Shown here: piece after piece, positions 13,987 to 64,000 of the stretch
Numbering within the stretch: the stretch's first letter is position 1
How the letters are laid out: every line of letters starts with the position of its first letter
Origin: Candidatus Eiseniibacteriota bacterium
GTDB lineage: Bacteria; Eisenbacteria; RBG-16-71-46; JAFGJU01
Length of the DNA stretch: 64,000 bases
Reading direction: 5' to 3'
Assembly (NCBI GenBank): GCA_026388185.1
Contig: JAPLKG010000014.1
Location: forward strand, 276,319-340,318
Position numbers and translations under genes: made by a program
The notes under the pieces: model-generated
Seen by the model: the letters and a program-made list of their open reading frames with translations, nothing else
Database searches by the model: none
What the model was told of the DNA's origin: nothing

Positions 13987-14631
13987 GTGCACATTCCAGA
14001 CGGTTTTCTTGAAGCGAAGGTGTGGGTGCCTGCTTGGGTGCTGGCGGCCGGGGCAATGGGACTCTGCTCCAGAAAGGCCGGCCGGGCTCTTGGCGACAAA
14101 AAGATTCCTGTCATGGGAGTCACGGCGGCGTTCATCTTTGCCGCGCAGATGCTCAATTTTCCGATAGCCGGGGGTACTTCCGGTCATCTTCTTGGCGGCG
14201 CAATAGCCGCAACACTATTAGGACCGTACGCAGGATTCATGGTCATCACGGTCGTGCTCACGGTTCAATGCCTCGTATTTCAGGATGGAGGTCTCACCAC
14301 GCTCGGCGCGAACATCATGAACATGGCATTTGTAGGTACCACGTGCGTCTACCCGATCATAAGGGTGAGTAGCTCCGTGATGCGCAGGAGAGCGGGAGTT
14401 GTTCTCGGGGCTTCGCTGGCAGCGTGGGTCTCTGTCGTGGCAGCTTCCTTTGGCTGCTCTCTTGAGCTTGCGCTGTCTGGAAGGGCTCCGATCGCCGTGG
14501 TCGTGCCTGCCATGGTGGGTGTCCATTCCGTGATAGGGATCGGAGAGGCCCTGATAACGGGATTCTTTGTCGGATTCCTGCTCAAGACAAGGCCCGATCT
14601 TGTGATGAGCGGGACAACGGCAAATCGCTAG
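13987..14631 (+). CDS. cbiM: ECF transporter substrate-specific component CbiM/NikM (probable GTG start giving MHIPDG)
   Basis: VHIPDGFL N-terminus and 7-TM profile. GGAGG lies 10 nt upstream of GTG 13987. Confidence 0.8.
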   Translation: MHIPDGFLEAKVWVPAWVLAAGAMGLCSRKAGRALGDKKIPVMGVTAAFIFAAQMLNFPIAGGTSGHLLGGAIAATLLGPYAGFMVITVVLTVQCLVFQDGGLTTLGANIMNMAFVGTTCVYPIIRVSSSVMRRRAGVVLGASLAAWVSVVAASFGCSLELALSGRAPIAVVVPAMVGVHSVIGIGEALITGFFVGFLLKTRPDLVMSGTTANR

Positions 14632-15831: not shown

Positions 15832-16587
15832 ATGCGCCCCATCATACAAATATCCTCGCTCTCTTTCGCCTATCCTGACGGAACCAGCGCTCTCGACGGC
15901 GTTTCTCTTGACATATTCGAGGACGAGTGTCTGGGTCTTGTTGGGCCGAACGGCGCCGGGAAGACAACGCTCTTGCTTCACCTCAACGGCATTCTGTCTG
16001 GAAGCGGTAAAGTCACGATCGATGGTCTGGAGGTGTGTGACAAGAACTTGCGTGAAGTCAGGCAGAGAGTCGGAATTGTGTTCCAGGATCCCGACGATCA
16101 GCTTTTCAGTCCCACTGTTTTCGACGACGTGGCGTTCGGGCCGCTCACAATGAGGCTCGCCAATCCGGAGGTTCTTTCGCGCGTGAACTGGGCCTTGAAC
16201 GAAGCCGGCCTTGCCGGGCTCGAGAAGAAGGCGCCACATCATCTGAGCTTCGGCCAGAAGAAAAAGGCTTCGTTAGCTTCTGTTCTTTCCATGCGACCAA
16301 GAATCATTGCCCTCGACGAACCTACGAGCAATATGGACCCGCGCAGCAGGAGGAGGTTTCTCCAGCTCATAAAGGCGCTGAAGGCTACGAAGGTTCTCTC
16401 GACTCACGACATGGAGAGCGTGAGTGAATTGTGCAGTAGAGTCGTTGTGCTCGATTCCGGCAGGGTGGTCGCCGACGGGAACACGCAATCCGTTCTCTCG
16501 AATAGAGAACTCATGGAATCTCACGGCCTGGAAGTCCCGCGCAGCCTCTGGTGCCCGCCACGACATTCACCTGACGTGCCACACTAG
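15832..16587 (+). CDS. cbiO: ECF transporter ATPase CbiO
   Basis: Walker A GPNGAGKTT, ABC signature LSFGQKKKASLA, Walker B IALDEPTSNMD. Confidence 0.85.
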   Translation: MRPIIQISSLSFAYPDGTSALDGVSLDIFEDECLGLVGPNGAGKTTLLLHLNGILSGSGKVTIDGLEVCDKNLREVRQRVGIVFQDPDDQLFSPTVFDDVAFGPLTMRLANPEVLSRVNWALNEAGLAGLEKKAPHHLSFGQKKKASLASVLSMRPRIIALDEPTSNMDPRSRRRFLQLIKALKATKVLSTHDMESVSELCSRVVVLDSGRVVADGNTQSVLSNRELMESHGLEVPRSLWCPPRHSPDVPH

Positions 16588-49461: not shown

Positions 49462-49538
49462 TGGTGGCGGTGCAGGGATTCGAACCCCGGACACAAGGAT
49501 TATGATTCCTCTGCTCTGACCAACTGAGCTACACCGCC
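49462..49538 (-). tRNA. tRNA with CAT anticodon (elongator Met or Ile2/lysidine substrate), CCA encoded
   Basis: Reverse complement GGCGGTGTAGCTCAGTTGGTCAGAGCAGAGGAATCATAATCCTTGTGTCCGGGGTTCGAATCCCTGCACCGCCACCA folds as a cloverleaf: 7-bp acceptor, D-arm GCTC/GAGC, anticodon loop AUCAUAA, T-arm CCGGG/CCCTG... . Confidence 0.8.
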
Positions 49539-49851: not shown

Positions 49852-50511
49852 ATGAAACTCGTCCGGTTTGTTGTCATTGCAGGCCTTCTGCTTTCTATAC
49901 TCTGTGGGACGTCCTTTTCTGCTGACGTAACCGGGCGCGCCTTCATGGGTAGCTCAGTCGGAACAATGCTCTTCATCTCTGACGACCAAATGAACGGGTC
50001 CAAGATCTGGGTGGGCGGCTACAAGATGAGTAGCGGCGTCAAGCCGAGGCCTTACGGAGACGTGAGTTTCGGTTACGTCTTCAAGCCCTATCTCTCCGCC
50101 CTGGTGAGCGTCGGTTACGGCTGGGAGGCATACAAGTTCGATGACCTGCGAGTCACGACTGCCAGGCCCATCACCGTGGGGGTTGAGTACAGGTACGGGA
50201 CCCGGAAGTATGTGCCCAAGGCAGGGATCGGCGTAGGTTACTACGTGTGGTCCGTGCTCGAAGACAGGAAGGTCATGAAAGATCCGATCACGAGGGAAGA
50301 ACTCAAGCGCGGCAACCCCGGCGGGTATGTGATGGCAGGTGTTGAGTATTTCATGAGACCCGATCTGACCATCGGCGGTGACGTGGTAGGCCATCACGTA
50401 TTCTCCGAAGACATCGAGGCTTTCCCGTCAGGATATGCGTACAACAAAGATATACTCTCCATGAAACTGGGCTTGAAGTACTACTTCGTGTCCAAGAAAA
50501 AGGGGTCCTAG
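49852..50511 (+). CDS. Outer-membrane beta-barrel protein (OMP_b-brl-like)
   Basis: Signal peptide, alternating beta-strand pattern, C-terminal LGLKYYF. Confidence 0.6.
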   Translation: MKLVRFVVIAGLLLSILCGTSFSADVTGRAFMGSSVGTMLFISDDQMNGSKIWVGGYKMSSGVKPRPYGDVSFGYVFKPYLSALVSVGYGWEAYKFDDLRVTTARPITVGVEYRYGTRKYVPKAGIGVGYYVWSVLEDRKVMKDPITREELKRGNPGGYVMAGVEYFMRPDLTIGGDVVGHHVFSEDIEAFPSGYAYNKDILSMKLGLKYYFVSKKKGS

Positions 50512-50521
50512 GCCCCGACTG

Positions 50522-51337
50522 ATGCTTCTCACTGGTCTCGTTGACTATCACTTACACACTAAACTCTGCGGCCACGCCCGAGGCGAGGTCGAAGAGTATA
50601 TTGACGCGGCCCGGGCTGCGGGTCTTGTCGAAGTAGGATTCGCAGATCATTTTCCGCTCTTGGGACGCGACAGAACGGGGCTCACGATGTCCCTGGAGGA
50701 GCTGCCGCTCTACTATGAGCGGGTGGCGGGCCTGAGGGAGAGCCACTCCGAAATTCGCGTGAAAGTGGGGATAGAGGCTGACTACATCCCCGGACAGGAA
50801 GCGCTCATAGAGAAACTGCTCAGTCTGTACGAGTTCGACTACGTGCTTGGGTCCGTACATCACATCGGGGACCTGGATGTCAGCAGTTCGCGGAATCTTG
50901 CCCGAGTCAATGCAATGGACTTCGACTCGCTTTACACCCAGTACTTCACCCTGGTAACGGAGTGCGCCGGAACGGGCTTGTTCGATATTCTGGCCCATCC
51001 CGACATTATCAAGAAGCACGGACATACCACCTCGCTTGACCCGAGACCTTTCTGGGAAGCGACCGTTGAAGCGACTGCGCGTGCCGGAATGTGCGTCGAG
51101 GTGAACGCCTCGGGTTTGCGGCGGCCGGTGAAGGAGATCTATCCCTGTGCAGAGTTTCTGGGAATGTGCCGGGAGGCCCGGATACCCATTACGCTTGGCT
51201 CGGACGCGCACGCGCCGTCCGAGGTGGGCTCCGGCATGGAGGATGCGGTCAGGCTGGCTCTTCAATGCGGGTACACTGAGAGCGTTCTCTTCTCGAGGAG
51301 AAAGGTCGAGGGGAGAGTGAAGCTAGGGGTGTCATAG
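50522..51337 (+). CDS. PHP-family histidinol-phosphatase
   Basis: VDYHLHT N-terminal His cluster, FADHFP, and further PHP His/Asp motifs. Confidence 0.7.
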   Translation: MLLTGLVDYHLHTKLCGHARGEVEEYIDAARAAGLVEVGFADHFPLLGRDRTGLTMSLEELPLYYERVAGLRESHSEIRVKVGIEADYIPGQEALIEKLLSLYEFDYVLGSVHHIGDLDVSSSRNLARVNAMDFDSLYTQYFTLVTECAGTGLFDILAHPDIIKKHGHTTSLDPRPFWEATVEATARAGMCVEVNASGLRRPVKEIYPCAEFLGMCREARIPITLGSDAHAPSEVGSGMEDAVRLALQCGYTESVLFSRRKVEGRVKLGVS

Positions 51338-51415
51338 CCTCATATACGTATATCTGTATATAAGACTATGACGCTTACCTCCTACTGTAGAGCGGCGAAA
51401 CACGGGGCCTTGAAA

Positions 51416-52882
51416 ATGCATGACAGATTTGTTGACGCGGACGGAATCACCTTCGACGACGTCCTAATCCTGCCTGCGCGTTCGACCGTGGTTCCTGCGC
51501 AGGTGGACGGCAGGACGCGCCTCACGCGAAACATCGAGCTCGGGATTCCGCTCGTGAGCGCTGCTATGGACACGGTGACCGAGGCGGCGCTGGCCATCGC
51601 AATCGCCAGGGAGGGCGGAATAGGCTGCATCCACAAGAACATGGGGATCGGAGAGCAGGCGGCGGAGGTCGACAGGGTAAAGAGAAGTGAGAGCGGGATG
51701 ATTGCCGATCCCATCACGCTTTCTCCCGAAGCTCCCGTCAGAGCGGCCCTGGAGCTCATGGATAAATTCAAGATCTCCGGCGTGCCGATTACCCAGGGCA
51801 AGAAGCTGGTGGGTATTCTCACAAACCGGGATCTGCGGTTTGTCGAAGACGTGAATTCGCCCGTGGGAAAAGTGATGACTCGCGAAGGCCTGGTAACCGC
51901 ACCTGAGGGGACGACGCTCGAGCAGGCGACGAAGATACTTCACAAGCACAAAATCGAAAAACTGCCGGTGGTGGACGCAGACTACAACCTTGTAGGATTG
52001 ATAACCGTCAAAGACATCATGAAGCGCATCAAGTATCCCCAGGCGTGCAAGGATTCGCAGGGGAGACTGAGGGTCGGTGCCGCCGTCGGCGTATCCGGGG
52101 ACCTCGAGGAAAGGGTGCTGGAACTCGTCAGGGCCGAGGTTGATGTGCTTGTTCTGGACAGCTCGCACGGGCATTCGGAGAATGTCATCAAGGCTGCAGA
52201 GAGCATCAAGAAACTGGCTGCCGGGATTGAGCTTGTGCTCGGCAACGTCGGGAGGGCAGAGGGCGCCGAGGAATTGATATCTGCCGGGGCCGATGCCATC
52301 AAGGTCGGGATGGGGCCGGGAGCCACGTGCACGACGAGAGTGATTGCCGGGGTCGGCGTGCCGCAGATTACTGCCATAATGGACTGCGTGCGCGTTGCCG
52401 ACAAAAAGGGTGTGCCGGTCATAGCGGATGGCGGGATAAGGCATTCGGGCGACATCGTCAAGGCCATTGCCGCCGGAGCAAGCTCGGTCATGATAGGGAA
52501 TCTCTTCGCGGGCACGGAAGAAAGCCCTGGCGAGACCATTCTCTACGAGGGCAGGAGTTACAAGCTCTACCGCGGGATGGGAGCGCCGGGTGCCATGAGG
52601 AGGGGGAGCGCCGACAGGTATGGCCAGGAGGCCGCCACCGCAGAGGCCAAGCTGGTTGCCGAGGGAATAGAGGGAAGAGTGCCGTACAAGGGTCCGCTTG
52701 GTCGGACTGTTTACCAGCTTGTCGGAGGCTTGAGAGCGGGGATGGGATACTGTGGTGCAAGAACGATACAGGAGCTGAGAACTACGGCCAAGTTTATCCG
52801 CATCAGCCCTGCGGCCCTCCGGGAAAGTCATCCTCACGACATAACCATTACACGCGAAGCGCCCAACTACGGGCTGCGTTGA
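51416..52882 (+). CDS. guaB: IMP dehydrogenase with CBS pair
   Basis: [20 protein letters not shown], catalytic-Cys loop [38 protein letters not shown]. Confidence 0.9.
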
Positions 52883-52950
52883 GGTGCGGCAAGCGCAACG
52901 CGCAGCTATAGGACAGCGGATCAAGATAAACGCCGCGGCAAGACGACGAG

Positions 52951-53751
52951 ATGGAAAAGCAGGGCAAAGCAAGAGAATTCACTGAAACACTCAGGGGAAC
53001 TGCCAATTCTTGTGGCGTGACCCTTTTCGGGACGGCCTCTTTCCACGGACGAGAGAACGAGGCTCCGAGCACGTTACCCTTTTCCTTGAGTGATCTCCCC
53101 TATGCCGTATCCATAGGGTTCAAGCTCAGCGACGTTGTCGTGGATGGTTTGGTGGACAGGCCGACCCGCACGTACCAGTATCACTACCGTCAGGTGAACC
53201 TGTTCATCGACCAAGCCCTGTTGCGACTTCTCGGGAAAGTGCATGAGCTGGGATACGAAGGCTTCCCGGTTCCCTCGTCACAAATAGTCAACTGGGAATC
53301 GAACACCGGCCATCTCACGCACAAGGTCGTCGCGAAGGAGGCGGGCCTCGGATGGATAGGTCGGAGCAACCTGCTGGTTTCTCCCGTGTACGGCGCCAGA
53401 GTGAGATACGGGAGTCTGTTCACAACCATGCCGCTTCAGACGCCGAGTATGCAAGGGGCAAAAGCCGGTATTCAAGGGGCTCAGGTGAGCGCTCAGGGAA
53501 CTCAGGCGGGCATTCAGGGAGCTCAAGACGGCATCCAAGCGGCTCAGGACTGCGGCGACTGTTTCAGATGTCTCAGGGCGTGCCCGGCCTCGGCAATCGG
53601 AAAGACCCGCGAAGAGTTCGATCTCGGAAAATGCACCGAGATGCTCAAGCTTTTCAGCAAGGAAGAAAACATCGGCTCCATGATTTGCGGGCTTTGCGTC
53701 AGGGCGTGCAAGGGACACGACAGACCGCGGAAGACGCCAGCTGCGGGCTAG
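52951..53751 (+). CDS. QueG-like 4Fe-4S protein (epoxyqueuosine-reductase-related, short form) containing an internal heptad tandem repeat
   Basis: AGLGWIGRSNLLVSPVYGARV matches the QueG core motif. CGDCFRCLRACP and CGLCVRAC ferredoxin-type cysteine motifs. Confidence 0.5.
   Translation: MEKQGKAREFTETLRGTANSCGVTLFGTASFHGRENEAPSTLPFSLSDLPYAVSIGFKLSDVVVDGLVDRPTRTYQYHYRQVNLFIDQALLRLLGKVHELGYEGFPVPSSQIVNWESNTGHLTHKVVAKEAGLGWIGRSNLLVSPVYGARVRYGSLFTTMPLQTPSMQGAKAGIQGAQVSAQGTQAGIQGAQDGIQAAQDCGDCFRCLRACPASAIGKTREEFDLGKCTEMLKLFSKEENIGSMICGLCVRACKGHDRPRKTPAAG
53464..53547 (+). repeat. 4 x 21-bp imperfect tandem repeat encoding (A/V/D)(G/S)(I/A)Q(G/A)(A/T)Q heptads inside the QueG-like gene
   Basis: Units gccggtattcaaggggctcag / gtgagcgctcagggaactcag / gcgggcattcagggagctcaa / gacggcatccaagcggctcag. 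Confidence 0.8.
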
Positions 53752-53883
53752 CGGAAGTTGTGGCGGCATCCCCGGCCAGCAAGCCGCATGGAGCGTATGT
53801 CGCGTCTGCGCACGATCCTCGGCTGGCCGACCGCACAAATCACTTGTCGCCGCCCCGCCACTTAAGTATTGGAGGGAGCTAGA

Positions 53884-54411
53884 ATGCCCATCCTTACTGG
53901 AAAGCCTGCCAAAGCCAAGCTGGTCGCGGCGCTCATGGCTCCACGTGAGGGGTTGATCCAGAAAGCCCTTTCTGCTCTCGAGCCAACCTACGGGTCAGTA
54001 GAGCTTGCTAGTAGCGTTTTTCCCTTCACCTACTCCGATTACTACAAAAACGAGATGGGGGACGGTCTGTGCAAGATGTTCTGCTCGTTTGGCAGGCTCA
54101 TCGAACCTGATGAAATCGTGAGCTTGAAACTCGAGGCAATCGAATGCGAGAAGAAGTTTCTGAGAGACGAGGCCCCTCAAACGTCATTCAAAAGGTCGGT
54201 CAACATAGACCCCGGCTATTTGGACAGAACGAAGCTTGTCCTCGCTACGACAAAAGACTGCTCCCACCGAATCTACCTCGCCAAAGGAATCTACGGTGAC
54301 GTCGAGCTCGTGTATAGATCGGGAAGTTTTGTCTGCCTGGAGTGGACGTATCTCGACTATAGAGAGGCGTTCGCCATAGAATTCTTCAACAAGGTGAGGA
54401 GCGCAACCTGA
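53884..54411 (+). CDS. DUF4416-like hypothetical protein
   Basis: GGAGGG RBS, MPILTGKPAKAKLVAAL..YGSVELASSVFPFTYSDYYKNEMG..NIDPGYLDRTKLVLATTKDCSHRIYL pattern recalled as DUF4416. Confidence 0.45.
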   Translation: MPILTGKPAKAKLVAALMAPREGLIQKALSALEPTYGSVELASSVFPFTYSDYYKNEMGDGLCKMFCSFGRLIEPDEIVSLKLEAIECEKKFLRDEAPQTSFKRSVNIDPGYLDRTKLVLATTKDCSHRIYLAKGIYGDVELVYRSGSFVCLEWTYLDYREAFAIEFFNKVRSAT

Positions 54412-54489
54412 CCTCGCAGCGTGTCTTCTTAACGCCTGTGCGCGCTCGGGCAGAGGGAGGCGATAGTGCCGCATGACGTTTTTCCAAAT

Positions 54490-54640
54490 GGCCAGGTTTA
54501 TTTGCTAGTCGCACTTCCAAATAACACGGCTAATATCGGAAGCCAGGTACAAGTGCTGAGGGATGGGTGGGCTTGTGTCCCGGGTGAGGTAAGACACTGG
54601 GTACCGCAGGTTCGAGTCCTAGCTGGGGAGCCACAACTCT
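54490..54640. repeat. About 150-bp element, copy 1. The 5' 55 nt are nearly identical to copy 2. The 3' 90 nt are divergent and end in a tRNA-T-arm-like GGTTCGAGTCC...CTGGGGAGCCA motif.
   Basis: Direct comparison with 57450-57600. Contains hairpin GTGTC-N13-GACAC. Confidence 0.6.
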
Positions 54641-54707
54641 TCCGTATTCCGCAGCCCAAACGCCTAAACCTCAAGTACCCGTCGTTGGACCCGGCCGTAC
54701 AGCAAGT

Positions 54708-55190
54708 CTACTCTTCTAGCAGATTCCCGAATCTCAACTGTCTTTGAGGGGCTTTCGCCTTGATAAGGCTGGAGACTTTCTCAACGAACTTCTCGGCCAC
54801 CGCGATAGAATGAGTCGCTTCTTTCAGCGAACAAGGTATGCCGGGTTCATAGATGAACCTGTGACGTTTTCGCCTCATGAAATCATAATCGTTCACAAGT
54901 TTCCTAAACTCATCTCCTAAAACCGAACCCGCAAATCTCACTATTGTCAAGTGCTTGTTCTTGATTTCCGGTCTGAACCCCTCGCTGAACATCAAACCCA
55001 ATCCCATTCTCAACATGGCATTGTAAGCATAGTTGTAGGCACATTCCGGATCCTCTCGTAGGTTTCTCTTCGCAGTTCTCAGATCAGTGCGGGCGCGCTT
55101 GATCAGCTTGGCTACCGCCCTTTGGTCTACAGGACACCTCTTGATCAATCCGTCCTTTTCAAGGGGTTTCTCGGAATGTCTAGAGCTCAT
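54708..55190 (-). CDS. HEPN-domain toxin (HepT-like), copy A
   Basis: 160 aa, R-x4-H region RRKRHRF. 11-nt overlap with the upstream MNT gene. Confidence 0.7.
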   Translation of the reverse strand: MSSRHSEKPLEKDGLIKRCPVDQRAVAKLIKRARTDLRTAKRNLREDPECAYNYAYNAMLRMGLGLMFSEGFRPEIKNKHLTIVRFAGSVLGDEFRKLVNDYDFMRRKRHRFIYEPGIPCSLKEATHSIAVAEKFVEKVSSLIKAKAPQRQLRFGNLLEE

Positions 55191-55755
55191 CCTCTTTTCC
55201 CACCAACATTATCTTTGGAGCCGTCAAGACCTCTTCGATGAAACCGCTCGCGACTCTTTTCTTCGCCCGGTATTCTTGCAGAGAGTAGATCGTCGGGTTG
55301 ATTTCTCTCCGGAGTTTTTTCTCCAATCCCGCAATCTTCTCGTTCAACACGGAGATGTCGGGACGCCCGATTATCATTAGATCGATGTCGCTGGTCGCTT
55401 TTTCTCGACCCGAAGCGAATGATCCATAAATGAAGGCCAGCCTTATGTCCTTGAAAGACGATAACGTTTTTCTTACTGCCCCTTCAACACCAACAGTCTT
55501 AGAGACTATGGCCTTCAGTTCCTTGAATAGGGGATGTCCAGTATTCAGAGAGTAGTAGAGCAGGTTTCCGACTCTGTGAGTGACGAATAGGTTATCCCTC
55601 TGAAATCTTAAGAGCTCTCTTCTTATGCTGCCCGCGGAGTAACCCAGGATGCGCTCAAGTTGTCGCAGATAGTATTTCTGGGATGGATTGCTGAAGAAAA
55701 GGGACAGCAAGCCCTGTCTGATTCTTGACTTCGTTACATATAGCGCTTCCAACAT
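55180..55755 (-). CDS. Nucleotidyltransferase (MNT/MntA-like) antitoxin with N-terminal wHTH, copy A
   Basis: GSFASGREKATSDIDLMII NTase motif. N-terminal HTH. AGGAG RBS before ATG 55755. Confidence 0.7.
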   Translation of the reverse strand: MLEALYVTKSRIRQGLLSLFFSNPSQKYYLRQLERILGYSAGSIRRELLRFQRDNLFVTHRVGNLLYYSLNTGHPLFKELKAIVSKTVGVEGAVRKTLSSFKDIRLAFIYGSFASGREKATSDIDLMIIGRPDISVLNEKIAGLEKKLRREINPTIYSLQEYRAKKRVASGFIEEVLTAPKIMLVGKEDEL

Positions 55756-55770
55756 CGTTGAACTCCTTCT

Positions 55771-55788
55771 TGAGTACAATTGTACTCA
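55771..55788. promoter_or_regulatory. Perfect palindrome TGAGTACAATTGTACTCA, putative autoregulatory operator of the HTH-MNT/HEPN operon (copy A). Identical site at 62764-62781 for copy B.
   Basis: 18-nt perfect inverted repeat 16 nt upstream of the MNT start, conserved in both copies. Confidence 0.55.
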
Positions 55789-56146
55789 GTATTGGATACA
55801 GCGGCAAGTCTTATCTGAACCCAACCTTTGTACCGAAGTGGACTGTGCGACGAGCGTCTGAGGGTGGCATTCCAGATTGCACCACTGCCTGGTACTCGGA
55901 AGCTGCGGTGAGCCCTTCTGGCAATCAAGGCTGGACGACAGTTCTGGCACGATCCGGCCAGGAAGACAGTCTGAAGGTGAACCTATCCAGTCGTCACACA
56001 CTCTCGCTGGCGTTCGTTGTGCCCGCGCTTAGTGCTCCAGTCCGTGTAGACAACCCGGAAGTGAAGGGCGACTTCAAGGCTCTCTTCTAGGGTTCGAATA
56101 CTGGCACATTTGGGGAGGCACACCCTCCTGCTGTGCTGCACAATGC

Positions 56147-57286
56147 TCACCGCTGCAGAGCCGTCACAAGACCGGAAAGGCTGACGAACCGAACCTCCAT
56201 GTCACCATACTTCCTGTGGTAGCTGCGGGTCACGTCGTTAGCCACGACATAGTTTGAACCGGTCGGATATTGTCTCCGAAATGCCTGAAGATTCTTGGGG
56301 TCGAACGCGCCTGCCGACCATTTGCATTCGATGGCCACCGGAGCCCTTCCTCGCACCGAGTGTACGAAATCCACCTCGTGTCCTCGTTTGTCACGCCAGT
56401 ACCGAACTGTCCTCACCTGAAGAATGCTCTGAATCTCGTTCAGCACGTAGTGCTCCCAGAGCTGTCCCATGTCCTCTTCACGCAATTCTGTCCACCCGCG
56501 GTGGTAACATACGAAGCCAGTGTCGAAGCCGTAGACCTTCGGGGCCGCCACGATTTCGGTAGACTTGTGTCTTGTGAAGGGGCGAACTACGTGGGTGATA
56601 AACGTGGCTTCAAGCACGGCGAGATAATTGGAAATCGTCGTCCGGCTGATCTCGCAGGAGCGTGCGAACCTCGTCGCCTCGAATATGCTCCCACTTTGCG
56701 CGAGAAGAAGCTCCACAAATCGCTGAAACGAGGCTCTCCTCTCTAAGCGAAACAACTCCTGAATGTCCTTCGCCCAGTATGCATCAATCCATTCCTGGAA
56801 ATCTCGATCCGGAGTATTCGTGGCAAGAAAGAACGGGGGGAGTCCGCCGTAGAGGAAGCGGTGGCTGAGATCCACGTTCTTGAAGTCCACGAGATCGTGG
56901 CTGTTCATCGGCGTAAGCCAAAGATCCCTTTTCCGACCCGCCAGTGTGTCCTTGAACCTTGCCGACGCCCCGAGCGTGGATGACCCCGTGGCAAGGACTC
57001 GAGTCTTCAGGAAGTGGTCTGCCGCGATCTTGAGCAACTCGGAAGGATTCGAAAGGCGGTGAATCTCATCGAGCACAATTCTCCGGCCTACGAGGTCTTT
57101 CAGGAAACCTTCAGGATCCTCCATCAGACGCCGCGTACGGGGAAGCTCACAGTCGAAGTACTCGACTTTGTCCAATGACTTACTCAGGAAGGTCTTGCCT
57201 ACACGTCTAGCTCCAGAAAGCCAGACTACCGGCTTTTCCTTCCAGGCAGATTCAACCAAATCTATCCAGAAAGACCTTCGTACCAT
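56147..57286 (-). CDS. AAA+ ATPase (AAA_14 N-domain + DUF4143 C-domain)
   Basis: Walker A LSGARRVGKTF, Walker B IVLDEIH, DUF4143-like C-terminal region. Confidence 0.65.
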   Translation of the reverse strand: MVRRSFWIDLVESAWKEKPVVWLSGARRVGKTFLSKSLDKVEYFDCELPRTRRLMEDPEGFLKDLVGRRIVLDEIHRLSNPSELLKIAADHFLKTRVLATGSSTLGASARFKDTLAGRKRDLWLTPMNSHDLVDFKNVDLSHRFLYGGLPPFFLATNTPDRDFQEWIDAYWAKDIQELFRLERRASFQRFVELLLAQSGSIFEATRFARSCEISRTTISNYLAVLEATFITHVVRPFTRHKSTEIVAAPKVYGFDTGFVCYHRGWTELREEDMGQLWEHYVLNEIQSILQVRTVRYWRDKRGHEVDFVHSVRGRAPVAIECKWSAGAFDPKNLQAFRRQYPTGSNYVVANDVTRSYHRKYGDMEVRFVSLSGLVTALQR

Positions 57287-57449
57287 ACGCAACCATTGTT
57301 GCACATGGTGCTACCAAATGCAAGATCAAAAGCACAGTCGAAGGCACGCCTTATTGAGTGGTGGCTAAGATACTCGGGCAGGAGTGTGAAAATGACCTGC
57401 TTGCCCACGTTCCGGGCGGGTCCAGACAGCACTCCGTTCAGACGTCGAT

Positions 57450-57600
57450 TTTCCAAATAACCAGGTTTATTTGCTAGTCGTGCTTCCAAATAACACGGCT
57501 AATATCGGAAATCAGACACAAATGTTGAGGAATGGGTGGGCTTGTGTCGCGGGTGAAGCAAGACACTGGGTACCGTCGGTTCGAGTCCTATCTGGGGAGG
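57450..57600. repeat. About 150-bp element, copy 2 (see 54490-54640)
   Basis: ttttccaaata..ccaggtttatttgctagtcg..cttccaaataacacggctaatatcgga.. identical. 3' part has about 20 substitutions without indels. Confidence 0.6.
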
Positions 57601-57896
57601 CACTCGGTGCTCCAAGGTTGCCCTACTTCCTGCGCAGAGGATTTTGGCGTTCTCCAGCGAGAGCGCCTGTTCTCTTTTGGCAGGACTAAGACGAGCCGAT
57701 GGACAGAGACCGGGTATTGCTCTGGTTTAGTATCAAGGGCTGAGTTTTTTCTCTTGGCCTCTACGTGCGGTCGTGCTCACTGCATCCTTGCCCTACCCCT
57801 CGGGCTCCGGAATTTGATGGCAATGGCACGAAACTCAATGGGATGCTGCCGCTGATCGCACGCATTGATACTCGTCACAATGATCTTTAGGCTGGG

Positions 57897-58316
57897 CTAG
57901 TCCGCATCTACCAGATGGTCTCGAATGAACTTCTCCGCAGCCGCAACGACGTGATCTTTGACTCCCGATGGACTCTGTGCCAGCCAGACTGTGAAATTGT
58001 AAAGTTCTTGGGTATCCGCCTTCAGCCACTTACCATTACCAGCTAGAAATGTGAGCAAGGTGGTTACTGCGATCCTCTTGTTGCCGTTCTGGAAGGGGTG
58101 GTTCTTGATCATCAGATAGAAAAGAACACTAGCCTTGCCCACTAGTGTTGGGTACAGGGCCTTGCCTGAAAAACTCTGAAACGGAGTCACAACGCAGCTT
58201 TCAAGTCTGTTTGCAAATCGCGTAGAGAAATCAGGTATTGGCTCGTCGAAGGAGAGGTGTTCTTTAGCGAGTCGAAAGGCAAGGTATTCCACGTCGGCTA
58301 TAGTTATGATTCTCAC
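57897..58316 (-). CDS. doc: Doc/Fic-family toxin (HPFQNGNKR Fic motif)
   Basis: 139 aa, canonical Doc motif HPFxxGNKR. Confidence 0.8.
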   Translation of the reverse strand: MRIITIADVEYLAFRLAKEHLSFDEPIPDFSTRFANRLESCVVTPFQSFSGKALYPTLVGKASVLFYLMIKNHPFQNGNKRIAVTTLLTFLAGNGKWLKADTQELYNFTVWLAQSPSGVKDHVVAAAEKFIRDHLVDAD

Positions 58317-58573
58317 TATTCCCTGCTTAAGTTCTTCAGGACTTCGCCATATTCCAGAACTGTTCTACGAACAGCTGCATCTATTCGCTTCTTTCCCTTT
58401 CCTGATGTCTTCTTGCCGAGGACATCTGTGAGAGTACGGTCTGTAATGACGTACGTTTTGCCGATCTTCATAGCACGGATCTGCCCTTTTCTGACCCGGT
58501 TGTAAATGGCAATGCGACTGACTCCGATAAGCTTGGCAAGTTCGGGTATAGTGAAGTATTTTTCCTTAGCCAT
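58316..58573 (-). CDS. HTH (MerR/excisionase-like) DNA-binding antitoxin partner of Doc
   Basis: 85 aa, IPELAKLIGVSRIAIYNRVRKGQI HTH. 1-nt overlap with doc. Confidence 0.6.
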   Translation of the reverse strand: MAKEKYFTIPELAKLIGVSRIAIYNRVRKGQIRAMKIGKTYVITDRTLTDVLGKKTSGKGKKRIDAAVRRTVLEYGEVLKNLSRE

Positions 58574-58863
58574 GGTTCCTCACCTGAAGTTAGAAGGTTA
58601 ACTTGACATCCACAGGTTAACATAAGTTAATCAAGCGAACAACAGTTAACATGAGTTAACGTGAGCAAATTGATCAGTAACAAACAGATATCCTAACGTC
58701 TTGTCAAATAGTCAAGTTAGTGGATAATCCTGGAAAAGCCTTACTTTAGGAAGCTGGCGAGTATATCTCTCCCGGAAGCGACTCCTTTGTGGTACAATTC
58801 TCTTTCCAGTGAGGCCTTCGTTTTCTCAGAAAGGTATTTTATCCACAGATCAGATACCAATAG

Positions 58864-59790
58864 ATGGTATATATACCATCTATTGGTAGACAAATGGGCT
58901 CTATGAAGATGCTAACCAAGAAACATCATCTCGAAATCAAGACCTACTTCGATAGCGTGGATGCAAGAATATACACCCAGAAAGACATCCGACAAATCCT
59001 CGCAAGCAAACGGATTCTATGGCAACTGCCTGGAAAAATAGGCGTGGCTGAATTCCTGGACCATCTCATTAAGAATTCGGAACTCAAGAAAATCGTTCTC
59101 AATTCTCCAGATTATGATAAGAAATACATCCGCTATGCATGGAGGGAGATATCTGCATATCAGCTAAGTCTCTCTTTGAGACCACATTCCTATTTATCTC
59201 ACCGCTCCGCAATGTACTTGAATAATCTGACTGAACTGCCTTCCAGGATCATATACGTTAACTCCGAACAAACCCCAAAACCTCGACATGAAACCAGCCT
59301 TGAACAGAGATTGATCGACTTAGCCTTCAAATCTGAGCCCAGAACCTCAAAGTATGTTTTCAAGCATAAGAATTGGCGGATATGCTGTTTGAGCGGATTG
59401 AATACAGATAATTTGGGAGTAGTGGAAATCCAGGCACCCACTCAGGGCAGATTGCAGGTCACTGGCATTGAGAGAACCTTGATCGATATAGCCGTCAGAC
59501 CTTTTTATTCTGGCGGGACAGGTGAAGTCCTCAAGGCTTATATGAAGGCAATAGGGAAAATTGACACTGACCGACTGATTTCAATTCTGAGGAAGATCGA
59601 ATACATTTATCCGTACCATCAGGTAATAGGTTTCTATTTGCAGGGGGCAGGTTTTCAGAATTCTTCCTTGAATTCGTTTAAAGAAATGGGACTCAAACAT
59701 GATTTCTATCTTGACTATGGTATGCAGGAAAAAGACTACTCCAAAGAGTGGAGAGTTTACTTTCCCAAAGATCTTATGACTGCGCGTTAG
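58864..59790 (+). CDS. AbiEi-like (type IV TA antitoxin family) domain protein in AT-rich segment. Assignment tentative.
   Basis: SYLSHRSAMYLNNLTE resembles the AbiEi_4 S-x-x-SAL-x-x-hGL motif. Local GC clearly lower than flanks. Confidence 0.35.
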   Translation: MVYIPSIGRQMGSMKMLTKKHHLEIKTYFDSVDARIYTQKDIRQILASKRILWQLPGKIGVAEFLDHLIKNSELKKIVLNSPDYDKKYIRYAWREISAYQLSLSLRPHSYLSHRSAMYLNNLTELPSRIIYVNSEQTPKPRHETSLEQRLIDLAFKSEPRTSKYVFKHKNWRICCLSGLNTDNLGVVEIQAPTQGRLQVTGIERTLIDIAVRPFYSGGTGEVLKAYMKAIGKIDTDRLISILRKIEYIYPYHQVIGFYLQGAGFQNSSLNSFKEMGLKHDFYLDYGMQEKDYSKEWRVYFPKDLMTAR

Positions 59791-60219
59791 TTCATTGTCC
59801 GGATATCCACCAAGCCCGAGCTGATCCAATATGATAATAAGGTTCTAATCAAGCGCGAGGCACTTCTCTTCCATCAGTTAGCAAGGCGCCTTCTTGGTAG
59901 GTGACAAACTTAGGCGTCAGGACACGGTCTCATCATCTCTTGGTCGAGGGGCACTTGCTTCTGTCTGAACCGTGGTCTGTGAGAAGGTCGGTTGCATGCG
60001 CCTGTTGCGCCGACTAACGACTGTCAATGGCGATTTAATCTTACCCAGAAGTGGCGAAGTAAAAGTGTACCACCTATACGGCGTGCGCTGATCAGGCGAG
60101 TACGGATCTTGCCTCCTGTCTTGGGTCATAGGTGTAGTTCTTAACCAAACCTATAGTAGACCTCTCACAGGAGGTTTTTCATAAGTATCTAACATCGTCC
60201 AGCGAGGGGAGGCAACGAG

Positions 60220-61374
60220 CTATCTGAAAAGCGCCTTGATCTTGCCCCAGGTGGTGGGCAGTACAGATGTGGGACCGCAGCCGACACCCAAGGCGCCTAC
60301 CTGTCCACAACCAGGATGATTTGCGCAGGGCGAGGTACAGTTGATGTGGTAGTCCCCAGCAGCAGGATCACAAAAGAGAGGGTTTGCCGAGAAATCTTCA
60401 GACACCGACGTGCACGTATAGTAGTTTCCACGGCTGTTGTTCCATACGTCATTGCAGTGCAGTGTGGGTGACGATGAATGGGGCTGGGCGCAATCTATCC
60501 CGTACCATTCACTGCCAATCACGATATTGTTCTCCAGAAGTGGCGAGGCAGAATCAAGGGCAATGCCGACCTGGTTGTTGACTATCGTGTTACTATGCAC
60601 AGTTGGCGATGAATAGCTTATGTAGACACCATAACCCGTTCCGTCTACGATCAGATTCTCGTAGACTTCTGCCTGTGATGAAGCCCTGCACGAAACGCCG
60701 CCTGAACCATCCCTCATGATATTCCTGCGTACAACCGGAGAGCTACCTTGACAGGCAACCGCCATATCCTCGTTCCCGATGAACTCGTTGTTCTCAATGA
60801 CAGCCTGCGAAGTCAGACAATAAATCCCAGATCCATCAACGCTGCCGTACTCTGGCCATCCGCCCGTGTTGTTGCTTATTGTATTGCCGGAAACATATAG
60901 AACCGAAGCAGCATCAGCGGCTATGCCGCCCCCGGAGTTGTCCGTAATGACGTTGTCAATGATCTGAACATCTGAAGATTCACAGAAGATCCCACTCCCG
61001 GCATTGTTGGGCCAGTAATACCCAGAATACTGACCGTTGGTTATCGTAAGCCCTCGTATTACACCCGTGGCCGGAACATTGGTGCAATGGATAGCTCTGT
61101 GAAAGTCCCCGCCATGAATGCTGGTAACCGCGGTACCTTGTTCGCTAATTAGGGCGATGTTCTTTCCAGATATGGTCAAGGGCCCATAGTAATAGGGCTC
61201 ATAGTAATCACCCGGACCGACAAGGACTGTGTCGCCTGCAGCAGCAGAATCGATGCACGCCTGAATGGTCGTGCAATCCCCACTTCCATCCTGCCTCACA
61301 AGCCACGTGCGGGCGTCAGAGGCAACGGGGATGAGCAAGAGAAGAGAGAACAGAAGGAGGATGATAGCTCTCAT
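60220..61374 (-). CDS. Secreted right-handed parallel beta-helix repeat protein (pectate-lyase/NosD-like fold)
   Basis: Signal peptide MRAIILLLFSLLLLIPVASDA. Repeated (I/V)xxNx(I/V)xxNxxxG(I/V) turns. Confidence 0.6.
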   Translation of the reverse strand: MRAIILLLFSLLLLIPVASDARTWLVRQDGSGDCTTIQACIDSAAAGDTVLVGPGDYYEPYYYGPLTISGKNIALISEQGTAVTSIHGGDFHRAIHCTNVPATGVIRGLTITNGQYSGYYWPNNAGSGIFCESSDVQIIDNVITDNSGGGIAADAASVLYVSGNTISNNTGGWPEYGSVDGSGIYCLTSQAVIENNEFIGNEDMAVACQGSSPVVRRNIMRDGSGGVSCRASSQAEVYENLIVDGTGYGVYISYSSPTVHSNTIVNNQVGIALDSASPLLENNIVIGSEWYGIDCAQPHSSSPTLHCNDVWNNSRGNYYTCTSVSEDFSANPLFCDPAAGDYHINCTSPCANHPGCGQVGALGVGCGPTSVLPTTWGKIKALFR

Positions 61375-61700
61375 ATCGCTTTCGACCTCGCTTTCTGCCT
61401 GTCACAGACGAGCTCAGGGAAAACAAGAGGAAAGAGATCTTGTAAGCTAATCAATACGAGGAACTGTCTAAGGTTAGACTATCACATCTTGCCGCTTCGC
61501 GCAATCCCTTTCGATAACCCACCGAGAGCATGCAACCTGTTCTCAGTATGTGGGAAGGGAACACCTCGGGACCAGACGGCTCACATCCACTCTAATGGTT
61601 CGCAAATCGTACAACTTGAGGAGCCACAACTCTTCTGTATTCCGCAGCCCAAACGCCTCAACCTCAAGTCCCCGTCGTTGGACCCGGCCGTACAGCAAAT

Positions 61701-62183
61701 TCACTCTTCCAGCAGATTCCCGAATCTCGACTGTCTCTGAGGGGCTTTCGCTCTGATGAGGCTTGAGACTTTCTCAACGAACTCCTCGGCCACCGCGATA
61801 GAATGAGTCGCTTCTTTCAGCGAACAAGGTATGCCGGGTTCATAGATGAACCTGTGACGTTTTCGCCTCATGAAATCATAATCGTTCACAAGTTTCCTAG
61901 ACTCGTCTCCTAGAATCGAACCCGCAAATCTCACTATTGTCAAGTGCTTGTCCTTGATTTCCGGTCTAAACCCGTCGCTGAACATCAGACCCAGTCCCAT
62001 TCTCAACATGGCATTGTAAGCATAGTTGTAAGCACATTCCGGATCCTCTCGCAGGTTTCTCTTAGCAGTTCTCAGATCAGTGCGGGCGCGCTTCATTAGC
62101 TTGGCTACTGTCCTTTGGTCTACAGGACACCTCTTGATCAATCCGTCCTTTTCAAGGGGTTTCTCAGAATGTCTAGAGCTCAT
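61701..62183 (-). CDS. HEPN-domain toxin, copy B
   Basis: Near-identical to 54708-55190. Confidence 0.7.
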   Translation of the reverse strand: MSSRHSEKPLEKDGLIKRCPVDQRTVAKLMKRARTDLRTAKRNLREDPECAYNYAYNAMLRMGLGLMFSDGFRPEIKDKHLTIVRFAGSILGDESRKLVNDYDFMRRKRHRFIYEPGIPCSLKEATHSIAVAEEFVEKVSSLIRAKAPQRQSRFGNLLEE

Positions 62184-62748
62184 CCTCTTTCCCCACCAAC
62201 ATTATCTTTGGAGCGGTCAAGACCTCTTCGATGAAACCGCTCGCGACTCTTTTCTTCGCCCGGTATTCTTGCAGAGAGTAGATTGTTGGGTTGATTTCTC
62301 TCCGGAGTTTTTTCTCCAATTCCGCAATCTTCTCGTTCAACACGGAGATGTTGGGATTCCCGATTATCATCAAATCGATGTCGCTGGTCGCTTTTTCTCG
62401 ACCCGAAGCGAATGATCCATAAATGAAGGCCAGCCTTATGTTCTTGAAAGATGATAACGTTTTTCTTGCTGCCCCTTCAACACCAACAGTCTTAGAGACT
62501 ATGGCCTTCAGTTCCTTGAATAGGGGATGTCTAGTATCGAGAGAGTAGTAAAGCAGGCTTCCGACTCTGTGGGTGACGAATAAGTTATCCCTCTGAAATC
62601 TTAAGAGCTCTCTTCTTATGTTGCCCGCAGAGTAACCCAGGATGCGCTCAAGCTGTCGCAGATAGTATCTCTGGGACGGATTGCTGAAGAAAATGGACAG
62701 CAAGTCTTGTCTAATTCTTGACTTCGTTATATATAGCGTTTCTAACAT
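62173..62748 (-). CDS. HTH-MNT nucleotidyltransferase antitoxin, copy B
   Basis: Near-identical to 55180-55755. Palindromic operator at 62764-62781. Confidence 0.7.
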   Translation of the reverse strand: MLETLYITKSRIRQDLLSIFFSNPSQRYYLRQLERILGYSAGNIRRELLRFQRDNLFVTHRVGSLLYYSLDTRHPLFKELKAIVSKTVGVEGAARKTLSSFKNIRLAFIYGSFASGREKATSDIDLMIIGNPNISVLNEKIAELEKKLRREINPTIYSLQEYRAKKRVASGFIEEVLTAPKIMLVGKEDEL

Positions 62749-63288
62749 CGTCGAACTCCTTTTTGAGTACAATTGTACTCAGTATTGGATACAGCGGCAA
62801 GTCTTATCTAACCCCAGCCTTTGTACCGAAGTGGACTGTGCGACGAGCGTCCAAGGGCGGCATTCCAGATTGCACCACTGTCTGGTATTCGGAAGCCGCG
62901 GTGAGCCCTTCTGGCAATCAAGGCTGGACGACATCTGGCACGATCCGGCCAGGAAGACAGTTTGGAGGCGAGTTTATCCAAGCAGCACACACTTTCGCTG
63001 GTACTCGATCCGGTGACGCCTGATGTCCCAGTTCGCATAGACGACTCGGAAGCACGGGGCAGATTCGCGAGTCTCTTCTGCAGTTCGAATACTGGCACAT
63101 CTGGGGAGCCTGCCGCGGCGACGGGGCCTGTTGCATCCACGCTCGCTCCTGTGACTACCGCCTCGGGCCACCAAAGCAAGAGGAGCCAGCGCTTGGCCAG
63201 TCCATCGGTTGTGCTTAGTCTCTTGCCCAATCAGCAAGAGCCTCTATCTTCGCACACAAAAATACACTTGGTTTGTGCGGTATCTCTA

Positions 63289-64000
63289 TCAGCGCGTCAG
63301 CACTATCTTCCGCGCTTCCTTATGACCCCCGAAGTTGAGCTGAACGAAATACACTCCCGCCGGAAGCTTCGTCCCACGCGCACCCTTTCCATCCCAGTTC
63401 ACCATGTGCTGGCCAGCATCCTCCTCACCATCTCTGAGAACCGCTACCTGCCTACCTGCCACGTCATAAACGACTAACCGCACATGCCCACGCTCTGGCA
63501 ACGTGTACCCCAGGTGCGTCAATGCCTCAAACGGATTCGGCGCACCGCGACCGAGCAACAAGGCACCAGGAACTGCCCCTCCGCCTTCAACACCGACCAC
63601 GGTTCCAGTCCGCACATCCGCCTCCGTCACACAGTTGTACGGCAACGAAAACCACGGGGAACGCGGGAAAAACGGCGAATCCGTCAACGTGCGAAGCCGC
63701 CAGTGATACATTATGTTTGACGTAAGACCAGTCACCACCTTGGAGAGACCCACCACGCTGCCGCCACCTCCAGGAATTCCCGTGTTGTACGCCGAACCCG
63801 TAACGAGCCCGCTACCGTTGAACGGCGTCCCCAGCGGCTTCACCTCGCACTGGAGCCGCACATTGCCACGACCTAAGGGGGTGCGACCCACGGCTTTCAA
63901 GAGGAAACCATCAGCCGAGCCGGACAGACCCAGTAGCGCGATAGGCGCCGAGTCGTCGGTTCGCGCCTGGCGGGCGATGCGATGGAGCCCATCACCTTCG
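63289..64000 (-). CDS. C-terminal part (T9SS sorting domain) of a secreted protein whose start lies beyond the window end
   Basis: NPFEALTHLGYTLPERGHVRLVVYDVAGRQVAVLRDGEEDAGQHMVNWDGKGARGTKLPAGVYFVQLNFGGHKEARKIVLTR is a textbook T9SS CTD. The reading frame stays open to position 64000. Confidence 0.65.
   Translation of the reverse strand, partial: EGDGLHRIARQARTDDSAPIALLGLSGSADGFLLKAVGRTPLGRGNVRLQCEVKPLGTPFNGSGLVTGSAYNTGIPGGGGSVVGLSKVVTGLTSNIMYHWRLRTLTDSPFFPRSPWFSLPYNCVTEADVRTGTVVGVEGGGAVPGALLLGRGAPNPFEALTHLGYTLPERGHVRLVVYDVAGRQVAVLRDGEEDAGQHMVNWDGKGARGTKLPAGVYFVQLNFGGHKEARKIVLTR

Follow-up and report, generated by a model that had tools for sequence, protein, structure and literature searches.

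A probable accretion island of toxin-antitoxin and defence modules at a tRNA-Asn-derived attachment site in Candidatus Eisenbacteria

In a metagenome-assembled genome of Candidatus Eisenbacteria, a stretch of 64 kb (the window, taken at its full length) carries a row of small toxin-antitoxin (TA) and defence modules between a DUF4416 gene and a FlgD_ig/Por_Secre_tail gene, and the question arises how these modules came together and what defines their boundaries. An earlier note on this DNA, made from the sequence alone, had interpreted the row as a cassette-like TA and defence array at a tRNA-derived attachment (att) core, an interpretation which is supported by the comparisons described here. 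An accretion island probably extends from ≈54.45 kb to 63.11 kb or beyond, built up by repeated site-specific integration at an att site whose sequence goes back to a tRNA-Asn 3' end. The principle of such islands, accretion at a tRNA gene, is already established; the special feature of this locus is its compact, integrase-less form.

At the module ends a common motif, GTTCGARTMCT..TGGGGAG, occurs with four exact matches at 54610, 56092, 57579 and 63083, all on the + strand, and with none in 100 shuffles. The motif had been recognized correctly in the earlier note, but two of its positions (≈56070 and ≈57570) had to be corrected to 56092 and 57579, and what was described as a half-motif near 61600 turned out to be a third genuine variant (61598-61625), which recurs in other contigs. 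Counting this variant, core3, there are five cores in the window, every one on the + strand. The sequence of core1, GGTTCGAGTCCTA(G/T)CTGGGGAG(C/G)CA, comprises the T-loop, the 3' strand of the T-stem, the 3' acceptor strand, the discriminator G and CCA of a tRNA; the core is tRNA-derived as had been proposed, but it spans the T-loop through CCA and therefore more than a T-arm. The identity of this tRNA follows from searches with the core1 25-mer: all three viral matches in IMG/VR coincide with a tRNA-Asn(GUU) gene at its 3' end, and among the metagenome matches listed (at least 120) 45 lie inside tRNA genes (ARAGORN), 43 of them Asn and two with an Asn-like body and a GUC anticodon. A further 62 of the matches listed are displaced tRNA-Asn fragments, 17 extending back to the anticodon loop and 45 starting at the T-arm, and the residual 13 are cut by contig ends. 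Displaced 3' fragments of tRNA genes are the classical mark of site-specific integration (PMC4383910), and in the window such fragments, in tRNA orientation, lie at module ends in the form of both core1 copies. Core2 (GTTCGAATACTGGCACATYTGGGGAGSC) and core3 (GTTCGCAAAYCGTACAACTTGRGGAGCC) have GTTCG at the left, ..TG(G/A)GGAGCCA at the right and five extra nucleotides in between; because of this 5-nt insertion they are not simple tRNA pieces, and they are read as element-borne mimics of the target tRNA end. In two loci (L035 and L043), the tRNA next to a recombinase gene combines an Asn-like acceptor and T-arm with a GUC (Asp) anticodon (ARAGORN) and ends in ..CCTATCTGGGGAGCCAC, as does the core of unit I_b in the window; the two loci have a common left flank and diverge directly after the tRNA.

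Copies of the HEPN-MNT and the ATPase cassettes, 80-94% identical to those of the window, were met in further metagenome contigs, with other neighbours and in other core combinations, and their boundaries fall again at the cores. On the HEPN side of the HEPN-MNT cassette, this was seen in six contexts, namely window copy A (core1), window copy B (core3), L019-L022, L023, L148 and L149-L151. In L023 (JGI 3300056618, a 140-kb contig, 80% identical), the homology extends exactly from core1 to core2, with core3 45 nt further on, and the cassette is neighboured by a peptidase S9 gene and a beta-helix gene, which differ from the neighbours in the window. In L148 (ENA ERZ27247707, a 49-kb contig, 81-83% identical), the HEPN side is formed by a 45-nt 3' half of tRNA-Asn and the far side by a decayed core2, and in L149-L151 a core1-like site is present at the HEPN side and core3 ≈140 nt upstream of the MNT gene. 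The HEPN-side boundary of L019-L022 (93.6% identical) carries GGGGAGGCAC only, joined directly to AACTCTTC, and the far side is replaced. The non-HEPN end is core2 in both window copies and in L023, a degenerate core2 in L148, and core3 in L149-L151. Along these lines, the ATPase cassette of the window has core2 at its left and arm1 plus core1 at its right, whereas a copy in L075 (91% identical) has core1 at its left and an arm ending in core2 at its right.

The array in L148 includes a feature that the window lacks, an intact target tRNA at one end: an intact tRNA-Asn gene (16009-16083, oriented as the cores) and a 28-nt site resembling a further core type, core4, stand immediately before an ATPase gene of the family found in the window. 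The layout of L148 is the canonical one, with the intact tRNA-Asn first, the cassettes next and displaced tRNA-Asn fragments last. The sequence upstream of the L148 ATPase gene, which contains TTCCAAAT, is the 5' half of arm1 of the window and probably the promoter or operator region of the ATPase gene. This 5' half features two TTCCAAATAA boxes (window 54482-54545 and 57451-57522) and is kept upstream of the L148 ATPase gene at 14502-14573. Unit I_a (54477-54634) has arm1 with no ATPase gene behind it; in view of the match to the region upstream of the L148 ATPase gene, it can be rationalized as the orphan remnant of an ATPase-type cassette. Over all loci compared (≈150 core sites), the families of right flanks follow 23-nt and 28-nt cores interchangeably, and the variable middle of the core goes with the left-hand arm. 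The free assortment of right flanks, together with the tie between core middle and left arm, would place the exchange point in or just past the common TGGGGAGCCA.

A relative of the locus was found in contig L102 (Ga0315291_10055041), which is 70-77% identical over window positions 49882-54403 and syntenic for IMPDH, a Fer4 gene and DUF4416. At ≈150 nt past DUF4416 there is only a relic of the tRNA-Asn 3' half, followed directly by phoU on the other strand, and no cassettes; the absence of the modules at the same site makes this single relative the apparent empty site of the island. The earlier note had suggested comparing the locus in related genomes for presence or absence, and in L102 the cassettes are absent. 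Since phoU is absent from the window, the right end of the island may lie beyond position 64000.

A second line of evidence comes from the two HEPN-MNT cassettes, A and B, which form a repeat of 1.49 kb (54625-56117 versus 61617-63108). The ≈90% identity over ≈1.5 kb claimed earlier was confirmed in substance and can be resolved into 94.3% over 54635-55977 (1.34 kb) and 68.6% over the final 140 nt. The copy of the L019 type, from another sample, is 93.7% identical to A and 94.0% to B, so that the three lineages are roughly equidistant. As A and B are as distant from one another as from the copy in the other sample, an assembly artefact and a recent duplication are both disfavoured; of the insertion or duplication originally considered, site-specific insertion is supported, whereas B is no recent local duplicate. 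The pattern would fit either two separate acquisitions or a duplication of long ago with exchange thereafter. Neither gene pair is disrupted, and their codon differences amount to 16 synonymous versus 14 non-synonymous for MNT and 15 versus 9 for HEPN. The upstream region of 330 bp noted earlier is present but composite, with a cassette-specific leader of ≈190 nt and a unit of ≈140 nt that ends in the core. The BLAST match with L019-L022 (≈93.6%) runs through the leader and ends at 55977; because the homology stops there, and because A and B, outside the core, are 68.6% identical in the ≈140-nt unit as compared with 92.6% in the adjacent leader, this arm-plus-core unit is a separate exchangeable piece.

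The two pairs have the features of type VII TA systems, i.e., adjacent genes overlapping by 11 nt, Pfam and PADLOC family matches, and the MNT motif GSx(9-13)DxD, found in translation as GSx10DxD (IYGSFASGREKATSDIDL and GSFASGREKATSDID). The only candidate for the Rx4-6H motif of HEPN is MRRKRHRF (MRKKRHQF in L013), with Rx3H spacing and no obvious fit to Rx4-6H. In homologues, MNT neutralises HEPN by AMPylation (PMC7641770, PMC11586414), and by analogy the MNT protein of the island would neutralise the HEPN RNase in the same way. The 18-bp palindrome described as operator in the earlier note is indeed perfect in both copies; it includes the -10-like TACAAT of the predicted MNT promoter and is probably bound by the N-terminal winged helix of MNT. 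It is exactly kept upstream of MNT in 10 of 18 loci of other phyla (the L001-L016 set), including the Bathyarchaeota genome L016, and MNT proteins from these phyla share more than 65% identity, a sign of recent and wide horizontal spread. The cargo modules may stabilise the island or, as PADLOC proposes, serve phage defence. The wHTH-MNT protein of copy A is 100% identical to P0001 (191 aa), which is recorded together with P0002 on one 341.5-kb contig.

In the proposed mechanism, each module would be a small non-autonomous element: one or two cargo genes under a promoter of their own, closed on the + strand by an att unit of ≈140-160 nt that consists of an arm and a core. The final 25-30 nt, the core, would mimic the end of tRNA-Asn from the T-loop to CCA, and the crossover would take place in or beside the common ..TGGGGAGCCA end, such that the left part of the core would move with its arm and the sequence past the core would belong to the next cassette. 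The recombinase would be supplied in trans, now or formerly, and the cassettes may still be able to move. The best candidate would be a large serine recombinase with the last codons of its own gene lying in the tRNA-Asn 3' end, with ..CTGGGGAGCCA as the presumed recombination site. The cargo assembled in this way would comprise two diverged type VII wHTH-MNT/HEPN pairs (PDC-M05), the ATPase (PDC-S01), Doc with its helix-turn-helix partner, an orphan AbiEi and a beta-helix protein.

Candidates for such an enzyme were met in seven loci (L035, L037, L043, L058, L084, L089 and L134), which encode on the strand opposite to the core a protein of ≈520 aa with Resolvase, Recombinase and Zn_ribbon_recom domains (for example L084:9344-10906 and L089:250-1776); the tRNA is intact in three of the seven. 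The final codons of these genes read TGG CTC CCC AGG TAG (W-L-P-R-stop) and, in reverse complement, give the end of tRNA-Asn, which means that the att core sits within the last codons of the recombinase gene. In L030, L128 and L138, only the last 57-207 codons of such a recombinase remain beside the core, followed by unrelated cargo; thus recombinase-less units can arise out of recombinase-bearing ones. Furthermore, in L013:114-2786 (Planctomycetales) and L003:4001-5836 (Omnitrophota) a wHTH-MNT/HEPN pair is directly followed by a large serine recombinase; the two recombinases are 63% identical, L002 holds a truncated copy, and the open reading frame (ORF) in L013 enters a tRNA-3'-half-like sequence at 2564-2586. 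Such an MNT-HEPN-recombinase unit looks like a minimal three-gene autonomous element. From these gene adjacencies we infer that a large serine recombinase acting in trans is the favoured, likeliest class, a P4-like tyrosine integrase being possible. Read on the - strand, the cores give WLP(R/S).., which in core2 continues as ..CASIRT... An alternative C-terminal tail of the recombinase, encoded by the arm, was not supported, as the tail profile matched one 52-aa protein among 5.8 billion sequences. A protein-coding role of the arms in general was not supported either, since they show no 3-nt periodicity and have in-frame stops on the + strand. An Xer/dif-like 28-bp site and attC were likewise rejected on inspection, the core having no dyad symmetry.

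Several observations weigh against the accretion island in this form. No recombinase was detected in the window, where blastp against large serine recombinases yielded just noise at E≈0.5, nor was a recombinase stub found in the window cassettes, with stops within 15-25 codons upstream of the core. A tyrosine-recombinase box II or intI-like pattern was not found in six-frame translations of the window either (by a regular-expression heuristic; the ORFs were not all scanned with Pfam), so that the earlier statement that no integrase is present was borne out by BLAST and this heuristic. The assignment to serine recombinases is unconventional because serine integrases are stated to be unknown at tRNA genes (PMC4383910). 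No intact tRNA-Asn gene lies within the 64-kb window, and no internal cores occur in the 4-kb segment with the Doc, AbiEi-like and beta-helix genes. Core2 and core3 exceed the real tRNA end by 5 nt and are element-derived mimics rather than plain displaced pieces, and the L019-L022 copy is without core2. Finally, the case for excision is argued from assembled sequences.

The partial decay of some cores (core3 in the window; core2 and core1 in L148) and the lack of a detected recombinase in the window would also be understood if the cores were old relics of one or a few integrations and the present arrangement, including the second HEPN-MNT pair, had arisen by duplication and unequal or homologous exchange, with no site-specific mobility at the level of cassettes. 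The distal arm of B, strongly unlike that of A, can be taken as the mark of such a mosaic. This explanation is rather unlikely, however, since the same cassettes lie between differing core types and neighbours in independent contigs, the families of right flanks assort freely with the core types, and the distance between A and B is no smaller than that of either to the copy from another sample; moreover, homologous exchange is inefficient over a common stretch of ≈10-25 nt.

It is far less probable that the arm-plus-core units are transcribed tRNA-like RNAs, acting as decoys or substrates of MNT or as antisense regulators of the cassette genes. The core does represent a tRNA 3' end including CCA, the units are antisense to and upstream of cargo genes, and their ≈170-nt relatives ("type 4") have inverted-repeat segments in which G-T mismatches exceed A-C on the + strand. 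Nevertheless, no relevant Rfam match was obtained at E≤1 in 50000-64000, and at E≤10 the segment 54430-54660 gave only a mascRNA-like match of 12 bits, attributed to chance. In folding energy the units do not surpass shuffles (z ≈ -1.3 to +1.1, either strand), and the covariation in a 15-member alignment of type 4 units is not above that of shuffles. In addition, the cores flank unrelated cargo, and the motif is present in one of the 18 HEPN-MNT loci of other phyla (L013), there at the end of a recombinase gene, and missing in the other 17. On these grounds the structured-RNA or MNT-decoy interpretation was rejected.

About as improbable, and if anything slightly more so, is a mis-assembly of strain variants as the origin of the second HEPN-MNT copy or of the module order. 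The source is a metagenome-assembled genome, and repeats of ≈94% identity can yield chimeric joins; on the other hand, the copies differ by ≈6% with different flanks and left cores, independent assemblies (L023, L148 and L075) repeat the anatomy of cassette plus core, and both MNT proteins are found on one 341.5-kb contig. A classical integron, i.e., attC-separated cassettes moved by an IntI tyrosine recombinase, can practically be dismissed in spite of the small one- or two-gene cassettes with much TA cargo, mostly in one orientation and with recurring intervening sites, as these sites are direct tRNA-like repeats devoid of the inverted attC boxes R''/R' (..AAC / GTT..), the cassettes bear their own promoters and operators, and the window contains no intI-like box II motif (heuristic check).

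The accretion island is thus retained, and its features are compiled in Table 1; gene calls rest on Pfam and PADLOC profile matches.

Table 1. Coordinates of genes, attachment units and presumed regulatory elements of the island and its borders (window positions).
Feature	Position	Strand	Remarks
DUF4416 gene	53869-54411	+	Pfam DUF4416 2.6e-53; conserved left flank, last gene syntenic with relative L102
att unit I_a: arm1 + core1	54477-54634 (core 54609-54633, GGTTCGAGTCCTAGCTGGGGAGCCA)	+	88% identical to 57446-57603; core = tRNA-Asn 3' end
HEPN toxin, copy A	54708-55190	-	Pfam HEPN 6.9e-07; PADLOC PDC-M05B 2.3e-09
wHTH-MNT nucleotidyltransferase (antitoxin), copy A	55180-55755	-	Pfam Polbeta/NTP_transf_2; PADLOC PDC-M05A 1.7e-54
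18-bp perfect palindrome TGAGTACAATTGTACTCA, copy A	55771-55788		presumed operator
Cassette-specific non-coding leader of HEPN-MNT cassette	55789-55977		92.6% identical A vs B
att unit II_a: distal arm + 28-nt core2	55978-56120 (core 56091-56120, GGTTCGAATACTGGCACATTTGGGGAGGCA)	+	core2 recurs in L023 and L075
AAA_14/DUF4143 ATPase	56147-57304	-	Pfam AAA_14 + DUF4143; PADLOC PDC-S01 5e-57
att unit I_b: arm1 + core1	57446-57603 (core 57578-57602, GGTTCGAGTCCTATCTGGGGAGGCA)	+	
Doc/Fic toxin	57897-58316	-	Pfam Fic 1.2e-10
HTH_17 protein, presumed antitoxin, upstream of Doc	58316-58573	-	Pfam HTH_17 8.2e-08
AbiEi-like gene	58864-59790	+	PADLOC AbiEi 2.5e-17; Pfam AbiEi_1 merely 0.0035
Secreted NosD/beta-helix protein	60220-61374	-	Pfam NosD 1.5e-29, Beta_helix 1.1e-22
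core3 GGTTCGCAAATCGTACAACTTGAGGAGCCA, left boundary of cassette B	61597-61626	+	same variant in L023 and L149-L151
HEPN toxin, copy B	61701-62183	-	94.4% amino-acid identity with copy A
wHTH-MNT, copy B	62173-62748	-	92.7% amino-acid identity with copy A; = P0002
18-bp perfect palindrome TGAGTACAATTGTACTCA, copy B	62764-62781		
att unit II_b: distal arm + core2	62970-63110 (core 63083-63110)	+	last recognisable core in window
FlgD_ig/Por_Secre_tail protein (right flank)	63289-63900	-	

The gene content agrees with that listed in the earlier note (HEPN/MNT, ATPase, Doc with its helix-turn-helix partner, AbiEi-like, beta-helix, second HEPN/MNT), as does the AT-rich stretch at the AbiEi-like gene, with a GC content of 0.40-0.45 compared to 0.55-0.60 in the flanks. 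The Doc motif HxFx(D/N)(A/G)NKR is present as HPFQNGNKR in the translation of 57897-58316, and the Doc and HTH_17 genes overlap by 1 nt. No AbiEii partner was found for the AbiEi-like gene, and 59790-60220 is without an ORF of more than 70 aa. A perfect 34-bp palindrome (halves TACCAATAGATGGTATA and TATACCATCTATTGGTA) at 58855-58888 spans the start codon of the AbiEi-like gene and may be an autoregulatory operator. A 21-nt inverted repeat (57684-57704 and 63200-63220, 81% complementary), located ≈80-90 nt to the right of cores I_b and II_b, may be due to chance. The only tRNA in the window is a tRNA-Met (49462-49538) on the strand opposite to the cores. At 53874-53945, overlapping the start of DUF4416, the twister-sister ribozyme model of Rfam matches below threshold (22.2 bits versus a gathering score of 34, E 0.66), probably fortuitously.

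Beyond the window, cores of the type core4 (AAAAGTTCGAAACGTGTCC.....GGGGAGCCA) were encountered in metagenome loci, where they close a conserved stretch of ≈170 nt that is non-coding and contains further GTTCGA boxes and an inverted repeat. In ≈17 contigs this ≈170-nt unit is situated 1-3.6 kb past a displaced tRNA-Asn fragment on the same strand, and the space between fragment and unit is occupied by one to three genes of very diverse function, with no recombinase, among them genes for a Kelch protein, CHAT-TPR with TIR, HNH, an alcohol dehydrogenase, an S41 peptidase, an ankyrin-globin protein, a methyltransferase, Xre-RES and esterases. From this pattern, compact tRNA-Asn-seeded cassette arrays are common in soil and sediment metagenomes. 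Core4 units are present in L045, L049, L050, L064, L069, L077, L091, L092, L096, L101, L103, L113, L137, L141 and L146, as well as in L152-L155 from IMG/VR; within the unit, an upstream core copy abuts an inverted repeat of itself (..TGTCCAGACTGGG TG CCCAcccTGGACA), and GGTTCGATCA is present as a third box. Scans of viral contigs for core2 and core3 gave no matches, and the core4 scan gave four contigs, one of which also encodes a large serine recombinase at a distance of ≈1 kb; this does not decide the matter. A cluster of three tRNA-Asn-end-like cores within 450 nt, with almost nothing between them, occurs in L105:18-472 (reverse-complement coordinates). Taken together with the spacing of 45 nt between core2 and core3 in L023, it means that cores can accumulate without cargo.

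A more far-reaching interpretation is tentative, and its correctness rather doubtful: a widespread, undescribed integron-like cassette system in uncultivated phyla, in which large serine recombinases with tRNA-Asn as target would act in trans. Its cassettes would be 1-3 kb long and serve one function each (TA, CHAT/TIR, HNH, esterases and others), with att units of ≈150 nt made of stacked GTTCG..GGGGAGCCA sites mimicking the tRNA-Asn 3' end, and the HEPN-MNT pair would be the addiction module of a minimal autonomous element. For the accretion island itself, the implication would be that a candidate phylum without cultured members accumulates and trades its defence and TA genes as very small att-bounded units, moving as small cassettes and not as entire prophages or conjugative elements. 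The exact cassette boundaries could be used for mining such cargo from metagenomes. Should the tRNA-Asn 3' end truly be the site at which the neighbouring large serine recombinases act, the range of serine-integrase targets would be wider and new pairs of att site and recombinase would become available. As accretion at tRNA genes is established, the advance is incremental unless mobilisation of the cassettes in trans is demonstrated.

It remains to place the island among known systems, the nearest parallels being tandem islands in tRNA genes, tycheposon islands, SCC-type cassette chromosomes and cis-mobilizable elements. Its HEPN-MNT pairs resemble HepT/MntA type VII TA systems (PMC7641770, PMC11586414) in their adjacent overlapping genes and the GS..DxD motif of MNT; they differ in the N-terminal winged-helix extension of MNT, the conserved 18-bp palindromic operator and the reading RRKRH of HEPN with no obvious Rx4-6H fit, the pairs of the island being known from their sequences. 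Integron arrays likewise consist of small, TA-rich cassettes of one or two genes parted by recurring recombination sites, in contrast to which the island has direct tRNA-derived repeats and cassettes with promoters of their own, and neither attC structure nor IntI. Staphylococcal composite islands include recombinase-less units (pseudo-SCC, from staphylococcal cassette chromosome) that are mobilised in trans. Similarly, cis-mobilizable elements (CIMEs) and integrative mobilisable elements that form by accretion are flanked by att sites, are without recombination genes of their own, and occur in tandem with related elements, the integrase being supplied in trans; they have been described mainly in Firmicutes beside conjugative elements. 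Compared with CIMEs, the units of the island are far smaller, and no helper element was identified.

The SCCmec and Enterococcus cassette chromosome elements (PMC6222049) share with the island variable cargo at the 3' end of a conserved gene and feature large serine recombinases and flanking att sites of ≈50 bp. Their target is rlmH and not a tRNA, the elements measure tens of kb, and the Ccr recombinases are unrelated in att sequence; the array in the window has no linked recombinase, and no large serine recombinase was detected in the window by blastp. The tycheposon islands of Prochlorococcus (bioRxiv 10.1101/2020.12.28.424599) are closer in that successive integrations at tRNA genes move older material inward and leave partial tRNAs and degenerate elements, with cargo arranged as plug-in cassettes. 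Tycheposons, however, hold integrase and replication modules and extend over several kb or more, whereas here only cargo and att units are present, with TA and defence genes as cargo, another host phylum and another target tRNA. With respect to the tRNA-integrated islands and tandem arrays described by Islander (PMC4383910), the modules of the present locus are small (1.3-4 kb), none has an integrase, the intact tRNA is gone from the window, a 5-nt insertion makes 28-nt mimics of two of the three core types, and the candidate recombinases are large serine enzymes. In spite of these differences, the likeness to such islands extends to displaced fragments of one tRNA, in tRNA orientation and at the module ends, to an intact tRNA-Asn at the 5' end of the array in L148, and to presence versus absence of the array in a relative.

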